DNA from: Enterobacteria phage GEC-3S | Length of the DNA: 64,000 nt | Sequence record: HE978309 | Direction: 5' to 3' (one strand) | Part shown: piece by piece, positions 3,808-37,867 of the stretch | Layout: every line of letters begins with the position of its first letter | Position numbering within the stretch: position 1 is the stretch's first letter | Notes under the pieces: model-generated | Seen by the model: only the letters and a program-made list of their open reading frames with translations | What the model was told of the DNA's origin: nothing | The model's database searches: none | Position numbers and translations under genes: made by a program

Positions 3808-4004
3808 CACTTCGCCCCATTGACGATTAACAGGATAGTGATTAGCACCGGAAACTGGATCATGATAGTGCCAATAAACCGGATAAATGCATTTTCTGAC
3901 TTCCACACATGACATGCGACTAGCTGATAGACCATTGTTGAAACCAGAACTAGGATATAAACCGAAAGCGGTGTAACTTCGATTAGTCGGGAAATCTCAT
4001 TCAT
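3807..4004 (-). CDS. Small membrane protein (65 aa, two hydrophobic segments)
   Basis: GAGGTG RBS; hydrophobic runs LSVYILVLVSTMVYQLV and IMIQFPVLITILLIV. Confidence 0.5.
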   Translation of the reverse strand: MNEISRLIEVTPLSVYILVLVSTMVYQLVACHVWKSENAFIRFIGTIMIQFPVLITILLIVNGAK

Positions 4005-4131
4005 ACTTCACCTCATACATTCATAAACACAACAACGAATAATACAGTAACAGTTATCAACGCCATTTTCAACCCCATATTCATAATATGTTCTTCGCCT
4101 CACTATGGACAGTAGCATGTCGATGCGTGCC

Positions 4132-4160
4132 ATTATAGACATCTAAATCGCTCTGTCAAG
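4132..4160 (-). promoter_or_regulatory. Sigma70-like early promoter (TTGACA-17-TATAAT) for 3807..4004 gene
   Basis: Minus strand TTGACA and TATAAT with 17-nt spacer, immediately after hoc terminator. Confidence 0.45.
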
Positions 4161-6556: not shown

Positions 6557-8059
6557 ATGCAAGATATTAAAATTCACTTTCTGAACTACTCCCATGTTCA
6601 AATTGAATGTAGCGATTCAATTTTATTAGAAATGCGAGATTATTTTAGTTTTGAAGTCGAGGGAGCAAGATTTCAAAAAAGATTTAAGTATGGTGGATGG
6701 GATGGGCGTATTCGTCTTTTAGATTACAACGGAAAGCTGCCAATCGGTCTAACTAAAACCGTGGGAATCTTCGCTAAAAATATGGGCTATAGCGTATGGG
6801 TAGATCCTCGCTTATTCGAAAAAGAACAAGTTACAGAAGAAGAAATTACAAAATGGTGTAATGACTTAGAATTATATTCCGGTGCTAACAGGATCACCCC
6901 TCATTGGTATCAATCAAAGGCCGTCTTTGAAGGTATTCATCATAAACGCCGTATGTTAGTTTTGCCTACGTCCGCTGGTAAATCTGCGATTGCTTGTATG
7001 TTGTCTCGTTGGTACTTAGAGAATTACGAAGGGAAAGTGTTGATCATCGTTCCTACCACGTCGCTAGTGCTGCAAATGCGTGATGACTTTGTTGATTATC
7101 GCCAGTTTCCTTATGAAGCAATTCATACTATCATGAGCGGTACTAGTAAACACGTAGGTGATCGCCTGATCGTTGTTAGTACGTGGCAATCTGCATGTAA
7201 ACAACCTAGTGAGTGGTTCCAACAATTCGGGATGGTTATTGTTGACGAATGTCACAAGGCTACTGCTAAAAACCTGCTAAACATCGTTACTGATATGGAT
7301 CATTGCCAATTTAAGATCGGCATGACTGGTTCCCCTCGTGACGGGAAAGCTAACATGATGCAGTATGTCGGGCTTTTTGGTGATATTTCTAAGATCGTGA
7401 GTATTGACCGCCTGATGGAAGAAGGTCAAGTGACAAAACTGAAAATTAACTGCCTTTTCCTTCGTTATACCGATGAGGAATGTAGCGCGGTTAAGGGGCG
7501 AGAATATGCGGAAGAGATCAAGTATATTACATCTAACCCACGACGAAATAAGTTTGCTTGCAATTTGGCGCTAAAACTCGCTAAGAAGGGCGAAAACGTA
7601 TTCCTGATGTTCCGCAATACTAAGCACGGAAAACTTATGTATGATGCGTTACAGAAGGTACACGACAAGGTTTATTATATTGACGGTGGAGTTAAGACAG
7701 AAGAACGTGATGAATTTAAGAAAATGGCGGAGGGTGACACCGGGATCATTTGTGTTGCGTCTTATGGTGTGTTCTCTACTGGTGTTTCAATTAAGAATTT
7801 GCACCATGTTATTTTCGGTCATCCAGTGAAGGAATCAACTATCGTTCGTCAGAGTATCGGTCGTGCATTGCGTAAACATGGTTCGAAAGACATTGCAACG
7901 GTCTGGGATCTTATAGATCATCTGGCGGTGAAGACAAAGAGCAAGAATGCTAAGAAACAGTTTAGTCACCTTAATTATGCTCTTAAACATGCCCTTGAAA
8001 GAATAAAAATTTACAATACCGACCGATTCGAATATGTCACGAAAACCATCGAGATTTAA
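6557..8059 (+). CDS. uvsW: UvsW DNA/RNA helicase
   Basis: Strong similarity to T4 UvsW (FSFE..RF..RF.YG.WDGRIRLLDYN; LPTSAGKS; VDECH; ATVWDLID); GAGG RBS. Confidence 0.93.
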   Translation: MQDIKIHFLNYSHVQIECSDSILLEMRDYFSFEVEGARFQKRFKYGGWDGRIRLLDYNGKLPIGLTKTVGIFAKNMGYSVWVDPRLFEKEQVTEEEITKWCNDLELYSGANRITPHWYQSKAVFEGIHHKRRMLVLPTSAGKSAIACMLSRWYLENYEGKVLIIVPTTSLVLQMRDDFVDYRQFPYEAIHTIMSGTSKHVGDRLIVVSTWQSACKQPSEWFQQFGMVIVDECHKATAKNLLNIVTDMDHCQFKIGMTGSPRDGKANMMQYVGLFGDISKIVSIDRLMEEGQVTKLKINCLFLRYTDEECSAVKGREYAEEIKYITSNPRRNKFACNLALKLAKKGENVFLMFRNTKHGKLMYDALQKVHDKVYYIDGGVKTEERDEFKKMAEGDTGIICVASYGVFSTGVSIKNLHHVIFGHPVKESTIVRQSIGRALRKHGSKDIATVWDLIDHLAVKTKSKNAKKQFSHLNYALKHALERIKIYNTDRFEYVTKTIEI

Positions 8060-8102
8060 TAAATAGGGGATTTAATGCCCCTTTATTCTACGGAGATTAA
8101 AA

Positions 8103-8339
8103 ATGATTAGCTTTAAACGTTTTTTGGTTGAGGCCGCTATTGACGGTTTCATGCGTAAGATTTATTCTTGTAATACTATCGAGGGATTAAATGAACTTGA
8201 GGCATATTATGAGAAGCGCAAGAAAGAAACAGAATTGAAACCTGCTGATGATATTTCGATCCGTGATGCCATCGCTGGACGCCGTAAGCAATTGGAAGCG
8301 GACAACGAGCCAGAAGAGGAGCCGGAAGAGGATTTTTAA
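8103..8339 (+). CDS. uvsW.1: UvsW.1-like small acidic protein
   Basis: 78-aa ORF immediately after uvsW, same position and size as T4 uvsW.1. Confidence 0.8.
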   Translation: MISFKRFLVEAAIDGFMRKIYSCNTIEGLNELEAYYEKRKKETELKPADDISIRDAIAGRRKQLEADNEPEEEPEEDF

Positions 8340-19951: not shown

Positions 19952-19981
19952 ATTATAGGGGATCACCGATCCCCTGTCAAC
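19952..19981 (-). promoter_or_regulatory. Sigma70-like early promoter with palindromic spacer
   Basis: TTGACA - GGGGATCGGTGATCCCC (17 nt) - TATAAT on minus strand. Confidence 0.6.
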
Positions 19982-20507: not shown

Positions 20508-20840
20508 TTATAGTCTCCTGAATGGATCATCACGTAAATCAATATCTTTTAAGAACTCATCCCATGAATGGCGGATATTGTTCTTAATTCTCCAGATAAG
20601 CGCAGGGATTGAACGCTCTCCCATCTGGAAGTAGGGATCATATGATCCGTATGCCCAATATGCTACTACAATTCCACAATCAGCGCAATAGTATTCTATT
20701 TCACTTGCTGGCGACCAAATTCCATCAATATGATCGGTGATCCTGCTTTCGATGTTATGGCTATGGCAATCAGGGCAACGGATGCAATGACCTTGTTTAT
20801 CGTAATTTGACGTTAGCGAATACTTAAACAATCTCATCAT
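20508..20840 (-). CDS. Cys/His zinc-ribbon-like protein (110 aa)
   Basis: CIRCPDCHSH ... CADCG; ATGA overlap with upstream methyltransferase-like gene. Confidence 0.55.
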   Translation of the reverse strand: MMRLFKYSLTSNYDKQGHCIRCPDCHSHNIESRITDHIDGIWSPASEIEYYCADCGIVVAYWAYGSYDPYFQMGERSIPALIWRIKNNIRHSWDEFLKDIDLRDDPFRRL

Positions 20841-21553
20841 AGATCCTTATTGGCTTCAAATACTGCCTTTGCGAATCCTCGCGGGGTAAGTGACCTGATA
20901 GTCTTTGTTCTGGTTCCTTTCCCGCCTAGCTTAGAATGCTGTTTACTGTACCCTTTATTAATATGCAACGGTTTCTTTTCTGGCATTATAAAGCCTTGTC
21001 CGGTCCATAAGCAAGTCTTTTTCGGGTACATATCACGGGCGGCGATATACTCAGGAAACGTAGGATGTTTATCATCTTCCGGCAAATAACCGCCATATTC
21101 CCACGGATGGAACATGTAATCAGGCTTACGCCACATACTAGAGATAACGCTTACAGGATTCTCTATCATGTAGGGAACTCCTAGCCATTCACCCAAATAA
21201 GCGGTTATTTTAGCTGCCCGTACATCATGAACTTGAATCAACGGTCCTTGTTCTCGTTTCTTTCGTTCAAAGTGTGCAGCGCCACTAACAGCTAAATTGG
21301 TACACGGTGGGAATGCAAAGATAATATCCGGTTTCCCCCATTCAAGGTCCATTGCTCTTTCCAGCCAGTTCAAATCAATCCAGGTGTTTACATAGGTAAT
21401 GTTTGGATGTTCAAATCTGGTATTATACTTTTTGTATGTACCGTGGTCGGCGTCATCCGCATTAAAGCAGACTACCTTATGACCTGCTTTAGCCCATTCT
21501 AGACCCATTATCCCCGATCCATCAAAGTTGCAGAATATTAATTTTTGTTTCAT
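20837..21553 (-). CDS. Compact DNA (cytosine-5)-methyltransferase-like protein
   Basis: Motif I FCNFDGSGIMG, motif IV FPPCTNLAVSG, motif VI MIENP, C-terminal RSLTPRGFAKA in canonical C5-MTase order; only 238 aa. Confidence 0.6.
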   Translation of the reverse strand: MKQKLIFCNFDGSGIMGLEWAKAGHKVVCFNADDADHGTYKKYNTRFEHPNITYVNTWIDLNWLERAMDLEWGKPDIIFAFPPCTNLAVSGAAHFERKKREQGPLIQVHDVRAAKITAYLGEWLGVPYMIENPVSVISSMWRKPDYMFHPWEYGGYLPEDDKHPTFPEYIAARDMYPKKTCLWTGQGFIMPEKKPLHINKGYSKQHSKLGGKGTRTKTIRSLTPRGFAKAVFEANKDL

Positions 21554-22043: not shown

Positions 22044-22083
22044 TGTTTGATTCTCCTAAGTGGTATCTCGTCTTGATGGTTGT

Positions 22084-22113
22084 ATTGTAGGGGAGTTATC
22101 CTCCCCTGTCAAC
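22084..22113 (-). promoter_or_regulatory. Sigma70-like early promoter with palindromic spacer
   Basis: TTGACA - GGGGAGGATAACTCCCC - TACAAT on minus strand. Confidence 0.6.
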
Positions 22114-22126
22114 ACTTTTTATAAAA

Positions 22127-22294
22127 TTATTTGTTAATTTCTGGTGCGTTGCTAGGATAGTAACCTTCTTTAACTCCGAGGTATTTCGCAACCATCCCTA
22201 CAATCTTCTGTGCTACTACAATGTCAAATTTCAGATAATCTTCGCCGTAGGTTTCAATGATATATGCTTCACATGCTGCTTTAGTCTCGAACAT
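22127..22294 (-). CDS. Hypothetical early protein (55 aa); paralog of 25403..25570
   Basis: MFETKAACEAYIIETYGEDYLKFDIVVAQKIVGMVAKYLGVKEGYYPSNAPEINK; near-identical C-terminus to 25403..25570. Confidence 0.45.
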   Translation of the reverse strand: MFETKAACEAYIIETYGEDYLKFDIVVAQKIVGMVAKYLGVKEGYYPSNAPEINK

Positions 22295-22329
22295 TTTGAT
22301 TCTCCTATATTTCGTTTCGGTATGGGTGT

Positions 22330-22359
22330 ATTATAGGGGATCTCCCGATCCCCGTCAAC
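22330..22359 (-). promoter_or_regulatory. Sigma70-like early promoter with palindromic spacer
   Basis: TTGACG - GGGGATCGGGAGATCCCC - TATAAT on minus strand. Confidence 0.6.
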
Positions 22360-22372
22360 AACTTTTTTAAAA

Positions 22373-22654
22373 TTATTCGTGATTAGTTTCGATGTTGTGC
22401 ATTTTGCACCAGTTCAGCCAATCGACCAGGTCTTGATAGTTGATGCTTTTATCTGCTGCCATCGTTTTTGTCTTGATACCCATATGTGCGTTATGAGTAA
22501 GCATTTTTACAGTGAACTCAATTTTATCGCCTTTAGCTTTAACATCAACCAGTTTGGTCCACTGGCTACCAGCGCCGCGAATGTTCATGCCAACGATGTT
22601 TCCGATGTATGCTTCTTTGTTTTTCAGGATTTCGGTTGCTTTGATGAATTTCAT
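22373..22654 (-). CDS. Hypothetical early protein (93 aa)
   Basis: ORF with own promoter and GGAGAATCAAA RBS. Confidence 0.55.
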   Translation of the reverse strand: MKFIKATEILKNKEAYIGNIVGMNIRGAGSQWTKLVDVKAKGDKIEFTVKMLTHNAHMGIKTKTMAADKSINYQDLVDWLNWCKMHNIETNHE

Positions 22655-22687
22655 TTTTGATTCTCCAGTTCGTTTCGGTATGGGTGT

Positions 22688-22717
22688 ATTATGCTATGTT
22701 CTTACTTTGGTGTCAAC
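22688..22717 (-). promoter_or_regulatory. Sigma70-like early promoter
   Basis: TTGACA - 17 nt - CATAAT on minus strand. Confidence 0.55.
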
Positions 22718-22724
22718 AACTTTT

Positions 22725-22994
22725 TTAGATATTTTCAGAAATAAATTTTAAAACTTGACGTAAATGTTTCTCATCTTTGATAGTCGCCGGAAGTTCTTCT
22801 TTTACTTCCTGTGCAAGATAGATATTTCCGTTCCAAGTGAAAGATCCGTCTTCGTTTACGCGATAGCTGAACATCCACTCGCAATCATTTTCGATTTCAT
22901 ATACACATAGAAGAGTATAATCTTCAAAGCTATTGATTTCAAGGTCGAAGCCGTGACGTTTTGCAAAGTTGGTAGTGGTTTTAGTCAGTGCCAT
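22725..22994 (-). CDS. Hypothetical early protein (89 aa)
   Basis: ORF with own promoter and GGAGAATCAAA RBS. Confidence 0.55.
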   Translation of the reverse strand: MALTKTTTNFAKRHGFDLEINSFEDYTLLCVYEIENDCEWMFSYRVNEDGSFTWNGNIYLAQEVKEELPATIKDEKHLRQVLKFISENI

Positions 22995-23034
22995 TGTTTG
23001 ATTCTCCTAAGTGGTATCTCGTTTCGATGGGTGT

Positions 23035-23065
23035 ATTATGCTATAGGCGTGATCTGGTGTCAATT
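23035..23065 (-). promoter_or_regulatory. Sigma70-like early promoter
   Basis: TTGACA - 18 nt - CATAAT on minus strand. Confidence 0.5.
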
Positions 23066-23086
23066 CTTTTTTTAAATTTTATGCAA

Positions 23087-23116
23087 TAAAAAAGCCGACG
23101 CTATGGTCGGCTAATA
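23087..23116 (-). terminator. Hairpin terminator after 23120..23428
   Basis: A-run then GCCGAC-GCTATG-GTCGGC on plus strand. Confidence 0.5.
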
Positions 23117-23119
23117 AAA

Positions 23120-23428
23120 TCATTTAGACAAATAATCATTCAGTGCAATCCGGTCGGCGTATGCTGGTGTTACGTCAATCGCAATCACTTTAACGCGTGC
23201 TTTCTTGCGACCTGGGTTTTCACGTAACCAGTGCTCATGACCGTGAACATTTTTATACTGCGATGCTTCTTCGAAGGTACGGATCGGACCTGGGTAATCA
23301 GCGTAAAGGATCTCTAGATCTTCGGTGATGTAAAAATATACATCGTAATTGCTGTTCTCTAGCTTAAGCAGAGACTTTCGGAACATTGGGAGATTTTCGC
23401 GGGTAAATTCAAAGATATTATCTTTCAT
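23120..23428 (-). CDS. HxHW-motif family protein (paralog 1 of 6)
   Basis: VHGHEHWL...VKVIAIDVTPAYADRIA shared pattern with five other ORFs. Confidence 0.55.
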   Translation of the reverse strand: MKDNIFEFTRENLPMFRKSLLKLENSNYDVYFYITEDLEILYADYPGPIRTFEEASQYKNVHGHEHWLRENPGRKKARVKVIAIDVTPAYADRIALNDYLSK

Positions 23429-23452
23429 AGTATTATCCTCAATAGTTGGATG

Positions 23453-23472
23453 AAAAGGGGCGTTAACGCCCC
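23453..23472 (-). terminator. Hairpin after 23479..23766
   Basis: AAAA-GGGGCG-TTAA-CGCCCC on plus strand. Confidence 0.45.
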
Positions 23473-23478
23473 CATATA

Positions 23479-23766
23479 TTAAAACAGTCCTTCCTGTACA
23501 CCGTAGTAGAGTTCGTCGCTGATAATTTCATTAATGCGACGGTGTGCATATTCCTGATTTGCGAAGTTGTCAGCAAGTTCTATTTTAGTTTCGCCGTCAT
23601 GAGTCCATTTAGTGATAACTTTACCATCTGCAAATTTGAAGTTGAACTCTTTAGCTACTGCATCGCGTACCAGACGTGCAAACTTATTGTTGCGGATTGC
23701 ATTGTCGGTTTCGTGTGCAGCGTGAGCAAATTTGTTAACTTTCAGAGTGATAGTGATGTATGCCAT
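23479..23766 (-). CDS. Hypothetical early protein (95 aa); shares AKEFN motif with 26806..27117
   Basis: ORF with own promoter and GGAGAATCAAA RBS. Confidence 0.55.
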   Translation of the reverse strand: MAYITITLKVNKFAHAAHETDNAIRNNKFARLVRDAVAKEFNFKFADGKVITKWTHDGETKIELADNFANQEYAHRRINEIISDELYYGVQEGLF

Positions 23767-23812
23767 AATTTGATTCTCCTAGTTAGAAAGTGTATCTCGT
23801 TTCGATGGGGAT

Positions 23813-23842
23813 ATTATGCTATATCCCCGATCCGGTGTCAAC
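23813..23842 (-). promoter_or_regulatory. Sigma70-like early promoter, palindrome spanning -10
   Basis: TTGACA ... GGGGATAT-AGCATA-ATATCCCC containing CATAAT. Confidence 0.55.
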
Positions 23843-23847
23843 ACTTT

Positions 23848-24126
23848 TTATAAAATAATTTTTTGATATTTTTCTATGATGTTCGTGTAAGTCACATCAA
23901 CCGCTAGCACTGTTGCTTCGAATCCACCGTTTAGCCAATGGCTATGATCATGGTCGTGAAAGAAACCTAGACCAGTACGAAGACCTTCTTTATATTCTGC
24001 GCGTACATTCAGTTTGTCGTCGATAAACAGATAAAACCATGAATTTTTACTAGGATTGATGATACAACCTTTCAGATTAGGGAGAATATCACGACTAAGA
24101 ATAAACTTATCACCTACTTTGAACAT
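23848..24126 (-). CDS. HxHW-motif family protein (paralog 2)
   Basis: FHDHDHSHWL...TVLAVDVT; internal ATG at 24126 with GAGGA RBS. Confidence 0.55.
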   Translation of the reverse strand: MFKVGDKFILSRDILPNLKGCIINPSKNSWFYLFIDDKLNVRAEYKEGLRTGLGFFHDHDHSHWLNGGFEATVLAVDVTYTNIIEKYQKIIL

Positions 24127-24130
24127 AATA

Positions 24131-24451
24131 TTAGTCCTCACTTATAAGGTCAAACCAATTGTTTTTCGCATAATGCTTAATGCGTGCTTGATCTGCTTCC
24201 GCTGGTGATAGATTCCATGCAACCACTACAACTTCTGACGCATCGTCATCAGTTTCCGATACCCAATGATTGTGATTCATACAGTTATTTGCTATCGAGT
24301 GAGCAAATGATTTCATCACTGGAGACGTATAATCATAGTAACGGATTTTCAGATTTTCATCAACATACAAATAGATCGTATAAGGTTTATATTCAGTAAC
24401 AAGTAACAGACAGTTACGCAATTCTGGGAAAATCTTTTTAGTTAATTTCAT
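24131..24451 (-). CDS. HxHW-motif family protein (paralog 3)
   Basis: MNHNHWVSE...VVVVAWNLSPAEADQA. Confidence 0.55.
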   Translation of the reverse strand: MKLTKKIFPELRNCLLLVTEYKPYTIYLYVDENLKIRYYDYTSPVMKSFAHSIANNCMNHNHWVSETDDDASEVVVVAWNLSPAEADQARIKHYAKNNWFDLISED

Positions 24452-24653
24452 ATTCTAGTTCTCCGTAATACACGGTAATCCATTTTTCTTCATATTTTGT
24501 ATCTTTCCAGCACACAATACCGTTTACTGTGCAATCTTTGGAATTGACGAATGATTCATATTGTTCCGCATCTTCCATCATTTCATGAGCGGTCTTTTCA
24601 TCGAATATATCGCAGATCGCTTTATATGCTCGATAATCTTTAAATTTGCTCAT
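24438..24653 (-). CDS. Hypothetical small protein (71 aa); tandem paralog of 24656..24865
   Basis: Both start MSKFKDY[RK]AY; internal ATG at 24653. Confidence 0.45.
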   Translation of the reverse strand: MSKFKDYRAYKAICDIFDEKTAHEMMEDAEQYESFVNSKDCTVNGIVCWKDTKYEEKWITVYYGELEYEIN

Positions 24654-24655
24654 AA

Positions 24656-24865
24656 TTAACACCACTCAAGAGTTTTTGAAAACACATCTATCCATTGTTG
24701 AGTATATGCGGTTTCTTTCCATGATACAATACCAGTCGAATAATGGTTTTTGTTTCCAGAAAAGGACGGGCATTTTGATGCATCTTCCATCATCTTTTCG
24801 GCGAACTCTGGTTCGTATACTCGCAAGATCTGTTGATATGCTTTATAATCTTTAAACTTACTCAT
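24656..24865 (-). CDS. Hypothetical small protein (69 aa); tandem paralog of 24438..24653
   Basis: ATGA overlap with upstream gene. Confidence 0.5.
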   Translation of the reverse strand: MSKFKDYKAYQQILRVYEPEFAEKMMEDASKCPSFSGNKNHYSTGIVSWKETAYTQQWIDVFSKTLEWC

Positions 24866-25146
24866 AACAACACCACCGATACATCGTAATCATTCGCGAC
24901 CTTATCGGCTTCTTCAACCGACATAATACCTTCTGCGACAATTGGCATAGGGTGATCGTGATTCCACCAATGGTCATGTATATCAATTTCAGTTTTGCCG
25001 GAAAATGAATCATGTTTGACGTTTTTCACTTTATACCCGATGTGACCGTCGTGGTCAATAAAGATATAGTTTCCGAAAATCGGTGTCTGTAAAATCATAC
25101 CGAAAAATTTTTCTTTGTTGTTCGGGTCGAGTGTAATCATTTTCAT
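24862..25146 (-). CDS. HxHW-motif family protein (paralog 4)
   Basis: IDIHDHWWNHDH...AEGIMSVEEADKVA; AAGAGG RBS. Confidence 0.55.
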   Translation of the reverse strand: MKMITLDPNNKEKFFGMILQTPIFGNYIFIDHDGHIGYKVKNVKHDSFSGKTEIDIHDHWWNHDHPMPIVAEGIMSVEEADKVANDYDVSVVLL

Positions 25147-25158
25147 AATATATTCCTC

Positions 25159-25338
25159 TTAGAAAGGGATGGTCATTTCTTGAGCTTGTACATTCTCGTT
25201 AGGATTAAACTTCATCCAACCGATATTGTCTACCAGCATATGCACATTTTTATCATATCCTACGTGAGTAGTCAACACTAAATGTGCTTTACATTCAACG
25301 ATGATTTCCATGTACTTCTGAACTTCGATAGCTTTCAT
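25159..25338 (-). CDS. Hypothetical early protein (59 aa)
   Basis: MKAIEVQKYMEIIVECKAHLVLTTHVGYDKNVHMLVDNIGWMKF...; GGAGAATCAAA RBS; below ORF-track cutoff. Confidence 0.45.
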   Translation of the reverse strand: MKAIEVQKYMEIIVECKAHLVLTTHVGYDKNVHMLVDNIGWMKFNPNENVQAQEMTIPF

Positions 25339-25370
25339 TTTGATTCTCCGTTTGTTGTCTTGATGGGAGT

Positions 25371-25400
25371 ATCTTACTACTCCCTTTAATCATTGTCAAC
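25371..25400 (-). promoter_or_regulatory. Sigma70-like early promoter (GGGAGTA...TACTCCC palindrome around -10)
   Basis: TTGACA - 17 nt - TAAGAT; palindrome identical to copies near 35.02 and 61.85 kb. Confidence 0.5.
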
Positions 25401-25402
25401 GA

Positions 25403-25570
25403 TTATTTGTTAATTTCTGGTGCGTTGCTCGGATAGTAACCTTCTTTAACACCCAGATATTTTGCAACCATTCCGGTGATCTTCTGTGCTACTACGATAT
25501 CGAATTTCAGGTAGTCTTCACCGTGGTTTGCTACAATGTATGCTTCGCATTCTGCTTTAGTCTGGAACAT
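25403..25570 (-). CDS. Hypothetical early protein (55 aa); paralog of 22127..22294
   Basis: MFQTKAECEAYIVANHGEDYLKFDIVVAQKITGMVAKYLGVKEGYYPSNAPEINK; internal ATG of ORF-track ORF 25403..25636. Confidence 0.5.
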   Translation of the reverse strand: MFQTKAECEAYIVANHGEDYLKFDIVVAQKITGMVAKYLGVKEGYYPSNAPEINK

Positions 25571-25604
25571 TTTTGATTCTCCTATATCTCGTTGGTATGT
25601 GTGT

Positions 25605-25634
25605 AGTATAGGGGATCGGTGATCCCCTGTCAAC
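25605..25634 (-). promoter_or_regulatory. Sigma70-like early promoter with palindromic spacer
   Basis: TTGACA - GGGGATCACCGATCCCC - TATACT on minus strand. Confidence 0.6.
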
Positions 25635-25641
25635 AACTTTT

Positions 25642-25950
25642 TTATTCTTCATCTTCATTTTTATCTTTATATGCGTACTTCATAAATTTGTCTGCTACTT
25701 TGTCCGCGTTTTCAGGTTCTACGTCTGACGCTAGGACAACAGCTAGTTCGGTTTTGTCGTTTCCGTCATACCAATGATTATGAGTGTCGTTTTCTTCGAT
25801 ATAAAACGAATCATTTGGAGTTGTTCGACAATATACGTCTAAATTCCCATCGATATAAAAGATCCAATCCGAATACAAAATGATTGCTTTAGCCAGATTT
25901 TTATTGTCTCTTACAAAAGGTTCCGCGACAAATAGCTTAGTTTGTTCCAT
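25642..25950 (-). CDS. HxHW-motif family protein (paralog 5)
   Basis: NDTHNHWYDG...ELAVVLASDVEPENADKVA; ATG at 25950 with GAGGAA RBS. Confidence 0.55.
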   Translation of the reverse strand: MEQTKLFVAEPFVRDNKNLAKAIILYSDWIFYIDGNLDVYCRTTPNDSFYIEENDTHNHWYDGNDKTELAVVLASDVEPENADKVADKFMKYAYKDKNEDEE

Positions 25951-25966
25951 AATATTTTCCTCAAAA

Positions 25967-26158
25967 TTATACAGCTTCGTAAACTTCCCAATGTTCAGCG
26001 CCAACACGCTTAACGAAAAGGTTTTCTTTGATGTTATTCATAAACGTCTGGATAGATTTAATGCGGTTGGAAGGTTTCCAGTCTTCGTTGGCATTGCGGC
26101 GATACATAATAACATTACCAGTTCGCTTATATTCAGCAACCATTTTAAGATCACACAT
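25967..26158 (-). CDS. Hypothetical small protein (63 aa)
   Basis: ORF with GAGGA RBS. Confidence 0.45.
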   Translation of the reverse strand: MCDLKMVAEYKRTGNVIMYRRNANEDWKPSNRIKSIQTFMNNIKENLFVKRVGAEHWEVYEAV

Positions 26159-26215: not shown

Positions 26216-26536
26216 TCACACAAAATGGCGTGTCAATGCTTCTTTTGCGGTTCCGCTAAGACTTTCGATCTCGCCTGGCATAACATCAACCGCCAGAACT
26301 TCGACAACATCCTCGGACCCTAACCAGTGAGTATGGCCTTTGTAGAACTTGATAACCAGACTACCTTCCTCATCCCATTTAACGCTATCGCTAGCCCACC
26401 ACACATCACCGTCGATAAAGTTGATGTAAAGCACACTACGCCACATTGAATTAATTACTTTCAATACTGCGCCTTTCATCTCTTCCACGGTATGGTCTTC
26501 CATTTTGAAGACCTCACCTACCTGAACTTTTGCCAT
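26216..26536 (-). CDS. HxHW-motif family protein (paralog 6)
   Basis: YKGHTHWLGSEDVVEVLAVDVMP; GAGAGGTGA RBS. Confidence 0.55.
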   Translation of the reverse strand: MAKVQVGEVFKMEDHTVEEMKGAVLKVINSMWRSVLYINFIDGDVWWASDSVKWDEEGSLVIKFYKGHTHWLGSEDVVEVLAVDVMPGEIESLSGTAKEALTRHFV

Positions 26537-26733: not shown

Positions 26734-26767
26734 GATTGATTCTCCTAGTTCGTTTCGGTATGTGTGT

Positions 26768-26798
26768 ATTATAGGGGATCTCCCGATCCCCTGTCAAC
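26768..26798 (-). promoter_or_regulatory. Sigma70-like early promoter with palindromic spacer
   Basis: TTGACA - GGGGATCGGGAGATCCCC - TATAAT on minus strand. Confidence 0.6.
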
Positions 26799-26805
26799 AA
26801 CTTTT

Positions 26806-27117
26806 TTAAAGTTTTTCCATGATAACGGTCATAATTACATCTTCTGCGCGAGCGGTCAGATTATCAGCGTCAGCATGTGGGCGGTTGGTTGTTACAGAGA
26901 TAGCACCGTTGCGCACTGGTTTGATATTGATATCAAGATGATCCGCGAAACGTTCGCCAGTTACAGAATGAATTTTGGTGTTAAATTCTTTTGCCAGTGC
27001 CTTGCGAACTTCACGAATCAGGGTAGCGTTTTTCAGTTGGTTCTCCGCGCTCATGGTCTTCTGGGTGTTCATGGTTCCGTCGAAGTCAATCATTGGCAGC
27101 GTTACGATGTATTTCAT
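26806..27117 (-). CDS. Hypothetical early protein (103 aa)
   Basis: ORF with own promoter and GGAGAATCAAA RBS. Confidence 0.55.
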   Translation of the reverse strand: MKYIVTLPMIDFDGTMNTQKTMSAENQLKNATLIREVRKALAKEFNTKIHSVTGERFADHLDINIKPVRNGAISVTTNRPHADADNLTARAEDVIMTVIMEKL

Positions 27118-27162: not shown

Positions 27163-27193
27163 ATTATAAGGGGATCACCGATCCCCTGTCAAC
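27163..27193 (-). promoter_or_regulatory. Sigma70-like early promoter with palindromic spacer
   Basis: TTGACA - GGGGATCGGTGATCCCC - TATAAT on minus strand. Confidence 0.6.
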
Positions 27194-37526: not shown

Positions 37527-37694
37527 TCACTTTTTAACACAAAAGAACTTAGTATTTCTGTTAACTTCGCTATCCTGCTGCAATTCCTGCACAGCTTCAA
37601 AACAATTTTGATATGATGAAAACTCTACGCTGGTAACAGTTCCTTTATTATATACGCCTACGCTAACGGAAAGCAATAACCATAATGTAGCCAT
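37527..37694 (-). CDS. Small protein with N-terminal hydrophobic segment (55 aa); tandem paralog
   Basis: MATLWLLLSVSVGVYNKGTVTSVEFSSYQNCFEAVQELQQDSEVNRNTKFFCVKK; TAATG coupling. Confidence 0.4.
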   Translation of the reverse strand: MATLWLLLSVSVGVYNKGTVTSVEFSSYQNCFEAVQELQQDSEVNRNTKFFCVKK

Positions 37695-37867
37695 TAGTTC
37701 ACCTTTTGTTTTTCAACGCAATATAGATTCATAAAGCGTTTATTGTCTTCGCGGATAATCTCGCGAGCTTTAACGCAATCCTGCTTTGTTGCAAATTCAA
37801 TGCTTGACATATTTCCGTAATTATACATTGAATTGCTGATTGCAATCAATAACCATACAGTAGCCAT
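37694..37867 (-). CDS. Small protein with N-terminal hydrophobic segment (57 aa); tandem paralog
   Basis: MATVWLLIAISNSMYNYGNMSSIEFATKQDCVKAREIIREDNKRFMNLYCVEKQKVN; TAATG coupling. Confidence 0.4.
   Translation of the reverse strand: MATVWLLIAISNSMYNYGNMSSIEFATKQDCVKAREIIREDNKRFMNLYCVEKQKVN

Follow-up and report, generated by a model that had tools for sequence, protein, structure and literature searches.

An early-gene region of phage GEC-3S encodes what looks like the same 55-amino-acid protein twice, about 3.3 kb apart. Is this pair a recent duplication, or the product of an older and continuing exchange between gene cassettes? To address this, we analyzed a 64,000-nucleotide stretch of the Enterobacteria phage GEC-3S genome (HE978309; "the window"), in which an initial annotation had noted two near-identical small-gene cassettes and proposed recent duplication or recombination between promoter cassettes. 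Our preferred reading (probability about 85%), based on sequence comparison, is that the two genes are an old paralogue pair, carried in promoter–ORFan cassettes, that probably exchange by recombination at the homology of the promoters and cassettes.

Two copies of a 55-aa gene between alt and gene 30

The window shares 98.5% identity with coliphage Phi1 over 4.2 kb, and its sequence assigns it to Krischvirus, T4-type coliphages of the RB49/Phi1/JSE group. The locus is the early-gene hyperplastic region bounded by alt and DNA ligase (gene 30), with more than 20 hypothetical ORFs around the two genes. Both 55-aa ORFs are present as annotated, on the minus strand: copy A (22127..22294), orthologous to Phi1 ORF191 and RB49 ORF191c, and copy B (25403..25570), orthologous to Phi1 ORF205 and RB49 ORF205c, with the Phi1 numbers taken from the Phi1 annotation. 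Each starts at an ATG that follows GGAGAATCAAA(A). The repeat period from A to B is 3,276 bp, and the block that separates the copies (22295..25402, minus strand) contains ten small ORFs (Phi1 ORF193, 194, and 197–204) plus several further promoter elements. Copy B also lies within a 77-aa ORF with a TTG start; this longer version, which reads through the promoter, does not correspond to the annotated gene.

The two proteins are identical at 48 of 55 residues (87%). Six of the seven differences fall within residues 3–16 and the other is residue 32, so the final 23 residues are identical and the final 39 contain one mismatch; the annotated identity over the C-terminal 35 or so residues was thus off by one residue. 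Residue 16 of copy A is Y in the window and a few other phages, and H in the other sequenced copies. At the DNA level, the copies align without gaps at 142 of 168 nt (84.5%), for which "near-identical" is too strong overall; identity rises along the gene from 78% (nt 1–60) to 81% (nt 61–108) and 93% (nt 109–168), and the last 27 nt do not differ at all. A tblastn search of the window with copy A found copy B at E = 2e-30 and everything else at E ≥ 0.6. There are exactly two copies: searches for a third or partial copy in the window (tblastn to E = 10 and blastn-short) returned only generic promoter-element matches besides the two ORFs.

Promoter–stem-loop elements flank both copies

Arbiol, Comeau, Kutateladze, Adamia, and Krisch (2010; Genome Biol Evol 2:140; PMC2839356) described cassettes in RB49 and Phi1 made up of an ORFan and a PeSL (promoter-early stem-loop), and Comeau et al. 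(2014; PMC4122927) extended PeSLs to T4/PST and KVP40/nt-1. The window represents the same phage group, locus, and elements. The PeSL upstream of copy A (22295..22372, minus strand; PeSL193/191 in Phi1) consists of an AT-rich box (TAATTTTAAAAAAGTTG), a -35 hexamer TTGACG (22358-22353), a -10 hexamer TATAAT (22335-22330), and a GGAG Shine-Dalgarno (SD) site. The PeSL upstream of copy B (25571..25641, minus strand; PeSL206/205 in Phi1) has the AT-rich tract AATAAAAAAGTTG, TTGACA (25633-25628), TATACT (25610-25605), and GGAG; from -35 to ATG, its only difference from the Phi1 element is one A in the SD–ATG spacer. Each promoter matches 11 of 12 sigma-70 consensus positions with a 17-nt spacer, within the 16–18 nt that characterizes PeSLs. 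The GGGGATC...GATCCCC motifs originally reported ahead of both copies proved to be hairpins inside these -35/-10 spacers: GGGGATCGGGAGATCCCC with a 7-bp stem for A, and GGGGATCACCGATCCCC with an 8-bp stem for B. Both elements thus show the set of PeSL features, namely, an AT-rich tract before the -35 that usually includes the stop codon of the preceding gene, a stable polyG...polyC stem-loop within or overlapping a sigma-70 promoter, and an SD site and start codon of a small gene in a hyperplastic location. The PeSL hairpins fold computationally as expected; relative to shuffled sequences, the z-score is weak for the 78-nt segment of A (-0.4) and -2.2 for that of B, with the GGGGATC/GATCCCC palindrome perfect.

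Downstream of copy A, PeSL191/190 (22044..22126, minus strand) begins at the stop codon and is predicted to drive ORF190, with TTGACA (22112-22107), TACAAT (22089-22084), and the hairpin GGGGAGGATAACTCCCC (MFE -20.5 kcal/mol, z = -3.7). Downstream of copy B, PeSL205/204 (25339..25402, minus strand) has its -35 TTGACA (25399-25394) three bases past the stop codon, followed by TAAGAT (25376-25371) and a hairpin, GGGAGTAGTAAGATACTCCC, that overlaps the -10 (MFE -15.2 kcal/mol, z = -3.8). These two downstream elements show no relation to each other, meaning that cassette homology stops at the stop codon.

Promoters of this kind are numerous at the locus: ten on the minus strand match at least 11 of 12 consensus positions within 9 kb. 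The PeSL of copy A is closest to one at 26749-26810 (60 of 62 nt), and the A and B PeSLs are not mutual best matches in the window. We therefore rejected the idea that the promoters were duplicated along with the genes; their similarity is either generic to PeSLs or the result of reshuffling. Promoter and terminator activities at the window's PeSLs are predictions borrowed from Phi1/RB49 data. In Phi1, PeSL206/205, the copy B promoter, is strong in a lacZ fusion (~13,000 Miller units), and PeSL211/210 is a terminator in vivo, where the hairpin ends transcription (PMC2839356).

Copy number and divergence across Krischvirus

Homologous places number 119 in 69 records; after setting aside 12 siphovirus records, 107 remain in 57 Krischvirus records. 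The comparison across relatives that the initial annotation called for gives two places in 50 of the 57 records, one in seven, and zero in none. Base-by-base examination covered 13 of the 57 related genomes, and distinct A and B types were found in all eight two-copy genomes examined this way. Copies in the compared genomes group by position (A or B) rather than by genome. Both copies appear to be under purifying selection, with at least one present in each sampled genome.

Deletion junctions and conversion tracts

We infer the following mechanism from these comparisons and the published work. Each cassette would consist of a strong sigma-70 early promoter, an SD site, and the 55-aa ORF, with the next PeSL starting from the stop codon; the G/C hairpin in the -35/-10 spacer would attenuate read-through from upstream. 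The conserved PeSLs (~60–100 bp) would offer patches of homology to the phage recombination machinery (cf. PMC2839356), and the ~220 bp common to the A and B cassettes would offer further homology. Exchange between the PeSLs that flank A could remove that gene alone and leave a chimeric PeSL, while exchange between the paralogous cassettes could remove ten ORFs and one copy and leave a chimeric cassette. Non-reciprocal exchange could pass short tracts from one copy to the other.

Relatives of GEC-3S carry junctions of these kinds, which upholds the earlier suggestion that recombination between promoter cassettes shuffles genes: in six genomes, the indels are bounded by PeSLs and leave a chimeric PeSL or cassette. 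In Brandy, JK32, and UPWr_E1, copy A is lost and the order is ORF193, chimeric PeSL, ORF190; the crossover lies between the -10 and the SD, and PeSL191/190 supplies the 3' half of the chimera. MIZ4 has lost ORF191-186; a single PeSL now lies between ORF193 and ORF185, with B-type sequence spanning the -35 hexamer through the -10 and 186/185-type sequence thereafter. A whole repeat period of 3,276 bp, with ten ORFs and one copy, is missing from Cognac and FL04, whose gene order is ORF206, one cassette, ORF190. The remaining cassette combines a B-type upstream flank with an A-type coding sequence and downstream flank, and the crossover points differ: that of Cognac lies between the 5'UTR and ATG, that of FL04 within the AT-rich/-35 box. 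In keeping with the model of Arbiol et al., the relatives' junctions fall between -10 and ATG or in the AT-rich box.

Shorter exchanges were recognized as conversion tracts, i.e., uninterrupted stretches of bases diagnostic of the other copy. Copy A of kaaroe has such a tract at nt 108-141, the Cognac gene at nt 114-141, and copy A of PTE-Eco09 from -10 to nt 24, while the B copies of PTE-Eco09 and Brandy both have one at nt 51-75. The chance of such contiguity is 1e-4 to 1e-2 per case. The Brandy B copy holds an A-type tract, and Brandy now has no copy A. These tracts could stem from co-infecting phages rather than from exchange within one genome.

Weighing the alternatives

The alternative that A and B share only a promoter and 5'UTR, or are two short ORFs that resemble each other by chance, is excluded. 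The AT-rich box, -35/-10 boxes, and GGAGAATCAAA SD region are indeed common to all PeSLs, but the similarity of A and B covers 218 nt at 85%, from the hairpin/-10 region through the stop codon TAA, immediately after which it ends, and since it extends through the gapless 168-nt coding region, it is not promoter-only. Recent duplication of the cassette in situ, as first proposed, is hardly tenable. It would fit the 87% protein identity and the identical last 27 nt; however, about 18 of about 34 synonymous sites differ, giving a near-saturated dS of ~0.94 (dN ~0.06; 0.064), and the same A/B diagnostic bases recur in RB49, Phi1, JSE, KFS-EC, FL20, kaaroe, and PTE-Eco09. Orthologues among the genomes compared (A–A and B–B) are 94–100% identical versus 83–90% for A–B; together with the two places found in most records, the persistence of distinct A and B types contradicts a recent origin. 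Somewhat unlikely, though more credible, is that A and B are xenologues, with one allele arriving from a diverged phage on a PeSL mini-circle that integrated at a second PeSL. PeSL mini-circles bearing ORF191 have been detected in virions, and the RB49 mini-circle "band H" carries ORF191-194, four ORFans that include the copy A orthologue (PMC2839356). The family also occurs in the unrelated phages swi2, SeSz-2, D10, and Bas81 and on a non-Krischvirus contig, and A/B homology ends exactly at the cassette boundaries. On the other hand, no non-Krischvirus homologue found is as near to A or B as the two are to one another (87% aa identity), the contig allele (85%) aside, and we found no donor lineage with one type only in another context.

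A separate question is whether the higher identity in the 3' third reflects conversion at all, or instead stronger constraint on the C-terminus or an overlapping nucleic-acid signal, which we consider doubtful. The C-terminal 23 residues are invariant in all sequenced Krischvirus copies, except for a stop at Y45 in FL20 copy A, and the EGYYPSN motif is kept in the siphovirus homologues, as constraint would predict. However, synonymous sites are homogenized too, with a dS of 0.60 in codons 33-55 versus 1.35 in codons 1-32, and the kaaroe A and Cognac tracts are B-type synonymous runs with A-type sequence on both sides. Such contiguous runs mean that protein-level constraint alone cannot yield the pattern. 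An old paralogue pair exchanging through its cassettes remains our preferred reading.

A very small protein family

Both proteins match the PHROG 8009 profile over their full length (residues 1-55 to positions 1-55 of 55; E = 1.7e-37 for A and 1.2e-38 for B), a family labeled "unknown function." Profile searches gave no match in Pfam, PADLOC, or PDB, and comparison with known defence and anti-defence proteins and solved structures gave no sequence or fold match. A word search of 5.8 billion proteins returned five matches and an exhaustive profile search of 1.84 billion representatives returned six; the family is very small. Of the six profile matches, one is spurious, a plant PB1-repeat protein (P0009), and another is an apparently chimeric ORF (P0008). 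The siphovirus homologues in swi2, SeSz-2, D10, and Bas81 share 72–74% aa identity, and the swi2 gene (gp36) is part of a small two-gene unit with divergent transcription. The contig allele noted above (P0003, a third allele, on a 7.6-kb Logan contig) overlaps the preceding ORF and is followed by convergent PHP and dehydrogenase genes, with no PeSL array.

The differences that set A apart from B are conserved, and most fall in predicted helix 1 (residues 3-16). This, with at least one copy in 57 of 57 genomes, would mean two specificity variants. We offer only tentatively, as an unlikely extension, that A and B are two such variants of an early effector against a host or defence target, and that their ~220-bp direct repeats make the ten-ORF block an excisable, transferable 3.3 kb "super-cassette," whose deletion would account for Cognac and FL04 and whose reciprocal product would be a packaged circle.

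Relation to other systems and implications

Arbiol et al. (PMC2839356) drew an analogy between PeSL cassettes and integrons, in which small promoter-associated units bring single ORFs via circular intermediates into a dedicated array. In contrast to integrons, only the usual T4-type recombination machinery is reported for RB49/Phi1, with no integrase, excisionase, or dedicated recombinase (PMC2839356), every PeSL cassette has its own promoter, and exchange is apparently general homologous recombination on short repeats. Lambdoid morons (Hendrix et al. 2000) are likewise lone accessory genes with their own promoter and terminator among other genes, which the swi2 gp36 unit resembles; however, the sequences flanking morons lack conservation and have no presumed role in their movement, whereas the PeSL is a conserved recombination site. 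A further parallel is recombination among direct repeats dispersed in the genomes of T4-type phages, where one period is lost, a hybrid repeat is kept, and short tracts are non-reciprocal; mechanistically we see no difference, and here the products occur in natural isolates. For the T4 system, homologous stretches shorter than 50 bp suffice (Singer et al. 1982, cited in PMC2839356).

The feature is real and its mechanism is already known, as recombination between PeSLs was published as a means of gene shuffling at this same locus in 2010 (PMC2839356). What we add is modest: the paralogy itself, the conversion tracts, and deletions mediated by the paralogues. The main texts of the two PeSL papers (PMC2839356, PMC4122927) do not mention coding homology as a recombination substrate, the ten-ORF deletion, or conversion tracts; they contain neither "paralog" nor "gene conversion," and "duplicat" only in reference to cultures, so the ORF191/ORF205 paralogy apparently went unnoted there. 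A wider literature search on that paralogy returned no relevant paper. With cassette architecture and shuffling described alongside experiments in 2010, the reach beyond the phage field is small. The natural deletion products and conversion tracts in public genomes give comparative support to the PeSL model, and coding-sequence paralogy lengthens the homology available for exchange, allowing a ten-gene block to be lost in one step. Finally, all sampled members of the genus encode this 55-aa early protein, often as two divergent versions, which makes the gene product a reasonable candidate for functional screens for early host-takeover or anti-defence proteins.

Two paralogous early ORFs in Krischvirus

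The initial annotation picked out two similar small genes in the window, and this feature is real, with the correct coordinates: copy A (22127-22294, minus strand; ORF191 in the Phi1 annotation) and copy B (25403-25570, minus strand; ORF205) each encode 55 aa. Both belong to a series of small "hypothetical" early genes that extends from alt to DNA ligase in the Phi1 annotation. The 4.2-kb stretch around the copies shares 98.5% identity with Escherichia phage Phi1 and matches 57 phage records, all from the RB49/Phi1/JSE group; every one of the subset for which taxonomy was looked up is Krischvirus, Straboviridae.

The two proteins differ at seven positions (E3Q, A7E, I13V, E14A, T15N, Y16H, and V32T) and share their final 23 residues. 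Calling the pair near-identical is generous for the DNA, in which 26 of 168 positions differ (84.5% identity); the match improves along the gene, from 78% over nt 1-60 to 93% over nt 109-168, with no difference in the final 27 nt. Similarity between the cassettes starts in the hairpin/-10 region and stops at the stop codon, covering the coding region and not the promoter alone, and the DNA 3' of the copies is unrelated, with the promoter-early stem-loop (PeSL) GGGGAGGATAACTCCCC after A and GGGAGTAGTAAGATACTCCC after B. A tblastn search of the whole window with copy A recovered copy B (E = 2e-30), with every other match at E = 0.6 or above, so the window holds no partial copies beyond the two ORFs.

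Searching 50,697 phage records with copy A (tblastn) located 119 places, spread over 69 records. Siphoviruses account for 12 of the records, each with a single copy; the other 57 are Krischvirus records and hold 107 places, with two copies in 50 of them and one in seven. These 57 agree in number and organism names with the records matching the surrounding DNA, so every sampled member has at least one copy.

Small early ORFs have been duplicated repeatedly in this genome. Two tandem paralogue pairs are encoded on the minus strand, at 24438-24653 and 24656-24865 (46% aa identity; Phi1 ORF201/202) and at 37527-37694 and 37694-37867 (38% aa identity). Six minus-strand ORFs of ~95-120 aa in the same array have translations with a common H-x-H-W motif: 23120-23428, 23848-24141, 24131-24451, 24862-25146, 25642-26007, and 26216-26536 (motif variants HEHWL, HSHWL, HNHWV, HDHWW, HNHWY, and HTHWL). 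Only one pair is detected by blastp at E < 1e-3 (23120-23428 versus 24131-24451, 32% identity), and the six resemble a family of ancient, diverged paralogues.

Age of the duplication and gene conversion

The similarity of the copies had been read as a recent duplication, which their divergence contradicts: by the Nei-Gojobori method, dS is 0.94 and dN is 0.064 (ratio ~0.07). We compared the locus from 13 further Krischvirus genomes, and at the 26 sites that distinguish the copies, the A-type or B-type base is kept by position in nearly every genome. In pairwise nucleotide comparisons, A copies are 95-100% identical to one another and B copies 94-100%, versus 83-90% between A and B. The duplication, or the gain of a second allele, therefore predates diversification of the sampled genus, and purifying selection acts on both copies. 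A recent duplication is thus refuted.

Partial homogenization accounts for the near-identity noted at the 3' ends. In several copies, consecutive diagnostic sites carry the bases of the other copy: B-type nt 108-141 in kaaroe copy A, B-type nt 114-141 in Cognac's copy, B-type bases from the -10 region to nt 24 in PTE-Eco09 copy A (yielding a Q3/E7 protein), and A-type nt 51-75 in copy B of both PTE-Eco09 and Brandy. If minority sites were scattered randomly, such contiguity would arise with a chance of 1e-4 to 1e-2 per case. Two tracts span the 3' third, consistent with the lower synonymous divergence there (dS 0.60 vs. 1.35). Brandy carries an A-type tract in copy B, yet has no copy A; therefore, some exchanges preceded loss or occurred between co-infecting phages. 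In FL20, a change of base 135 to A introduces an early stop (Y45*) into copy A (8001-8168 of the FL20 sequence L007), which the annotation lists as a 44-aa ORF; this copy may be decaying, with copy B still present.

PeSL promoters

As the initial annotation noted, both ORFs lie behind GGGGATC...GATCCCC elements: each is preceded by a sigma-70 promoter with a 17-nt spacer filled by this hairpin. These promoters are PeSLs as defined in RB49 and Phi1, consisting of an AT-rich tract, consensus -35/-10, a GGGG...CCCC stem-loop in or beside the promoter, and the Shine-Dalgarno and ATG of the downstream ORFan (Arbiol et al. 2010, PMC2839356). The same study cloned the copy B promoter, PeSL206/205 (~13,000 Miller units), found a PeSL hairpin to be as good a transcription terminator as rrnB T1, and detected in virions circular DNAs from PeSL x PeSL exchange, one carrying ORF191-194.

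The minus strand of the window between 19.7 and 27.2 kb has ten promoters with at least 11 of 12 consensus positions. The copy A PeSL matches the PeSL upstream of ORF209 (26749-26810) at 60 of 62 nt, better than it matches the copy B PeSL, and JSE copy A has the hairpin that precedes copy B in the window. The upstream neighbor of copy A is ORF193 in Phi1, ORF192 in RB49, and another ORF in JSE; that of copy B differs in PTE-Eco09, where it is ORF210. These comparisons suggest that the promoters reassort independently of the genes.

The loop of the copy B PeSL takes two forms that are exact reverse complements: GGGGATC-ACC-GATCCCC in the window (25605-25633), KFS-EC, and Phi1, and GGGGATC-GGT-GATCCCC in JSE, kaaroe, and RB49. 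Both forms occur elsewhere in the window (19952-19980 and 27163-27192), and the alternation could reflect either hairpin inversion or replacement by another PeSL. In every GGGGATC...GATCCCC hairpin (22330-22358, 25605-25633, 26768-26797, 27163-27192, and 19952-19980), two GATC (Dam) sites fall within the spacer separating the -35 and -10 of a strong early promoter, and a phage-encoded DNA methyltransferase gene (Phi1 ORF189, 20837-21553) lies nearby. Only one site in the array resembles a classical intrinsic terminator, namely AGCCGACCATAGCGTCGGCT with a T-run after it (23093-23112, minus strand). It separates ORF197 from ORF194, an interval that holds ORF195/196 in RB49 but not in Phi1 or the window.

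Single-copy genomes

Cognac and FL04 have the order ORF206, one cassette, ORF190, without one 3,276-bp repeat period (ORF193-204 plus one copy). The cassette that remains is a chimera, B-side in its upstream flank and A-type from the coding sequence through the downstream flank. The switch point is between the 5'UTR and ATG in Cognac and in the AT-rich/-35 box in FL04, so these were two independent events. Brandy, JK32, and UPWr_E1 have lost copy A alone; between ORF193 and ORF190 they carry a chimeric PeSL that combines the AT-rich box, -35, hairpin, and -10 of PeSL193/191 with the transcribed leader of PeSL191/190. In MIZ4, one PeSL links ORF193 to ORF185, so that ORF191-186 are gone; this PeSL is B-type in its -35 hexamer through its -10 and has a 186/185-type leader after that. 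The MIZ5 record has a single, B-type copy by tblastn.

The 55-aa protein

Both copies align end to end with PHROG 8009 ("unknown function"), and Pfam and PADLOC searches gave no match. The family is tiny, with five matches in a 5.8-billion-protein search and six in an exhaustive profile search, two of which were rejected as artifacts. AlphaFold2 predicts a small alpha/beta fold (helices 5-16, 18-22, and 34-39; strands 28-31 and 44-47) with a mean pLDDT of 91, only two of five models being confident, from a nine-sequence alignment. Predicted helix 1 would hold four of the seven A/B differences (A7E, I13V, E14A, and T15N); Y16 of copy A is particular to the window and a few phages.

Siphovirus homologs share 72-74% aa identity (swi2, SeSz-2, D10, Pu29, and Bas81). 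In swi2, gp36 (4001-4156 of the swi2 sequence L010; 74% aa, 66% nt identity) is in a small, divergently transcribed two-gene unit that adjoins the terminase gene and has no GGGG...CCCC hairpin. A third allele, 85% identical, overlaps the upstream ORF on the 7.6-kb Logan contig SRR5584643_240 (L015, 4001-4165). These homologs outside T4-type phages imply that the gene has spread horizontally, unaccompanied by its PeSL. Because the gene has a strong early promoter, either single copy is dispensable, and at least one is retained, we infer a putative accessory early protein acting on the host.

Relation to published work

The initial annotation also proposed recombination between promoter cassettes as a way of shuffling genes, which the chimeric deletion junctions in relatives support. 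This equals the PeSL-mediated "modular shuffling" proposed, and published with experiments for this same locus, by Arbiol et al. 2010 (PMC2839356). The main texts of the PeSL papers (PMC2839356, PMC4122927) apparently do not include the ORF191/ORF205 paralogy, conversion-tract exchange between the copies, or the loss of ten genes as a block from natural isolates via two-cassette recombination. The paralogy, conversion tracts, and ten-gene deletion are thus modest additions to a known mechanism.
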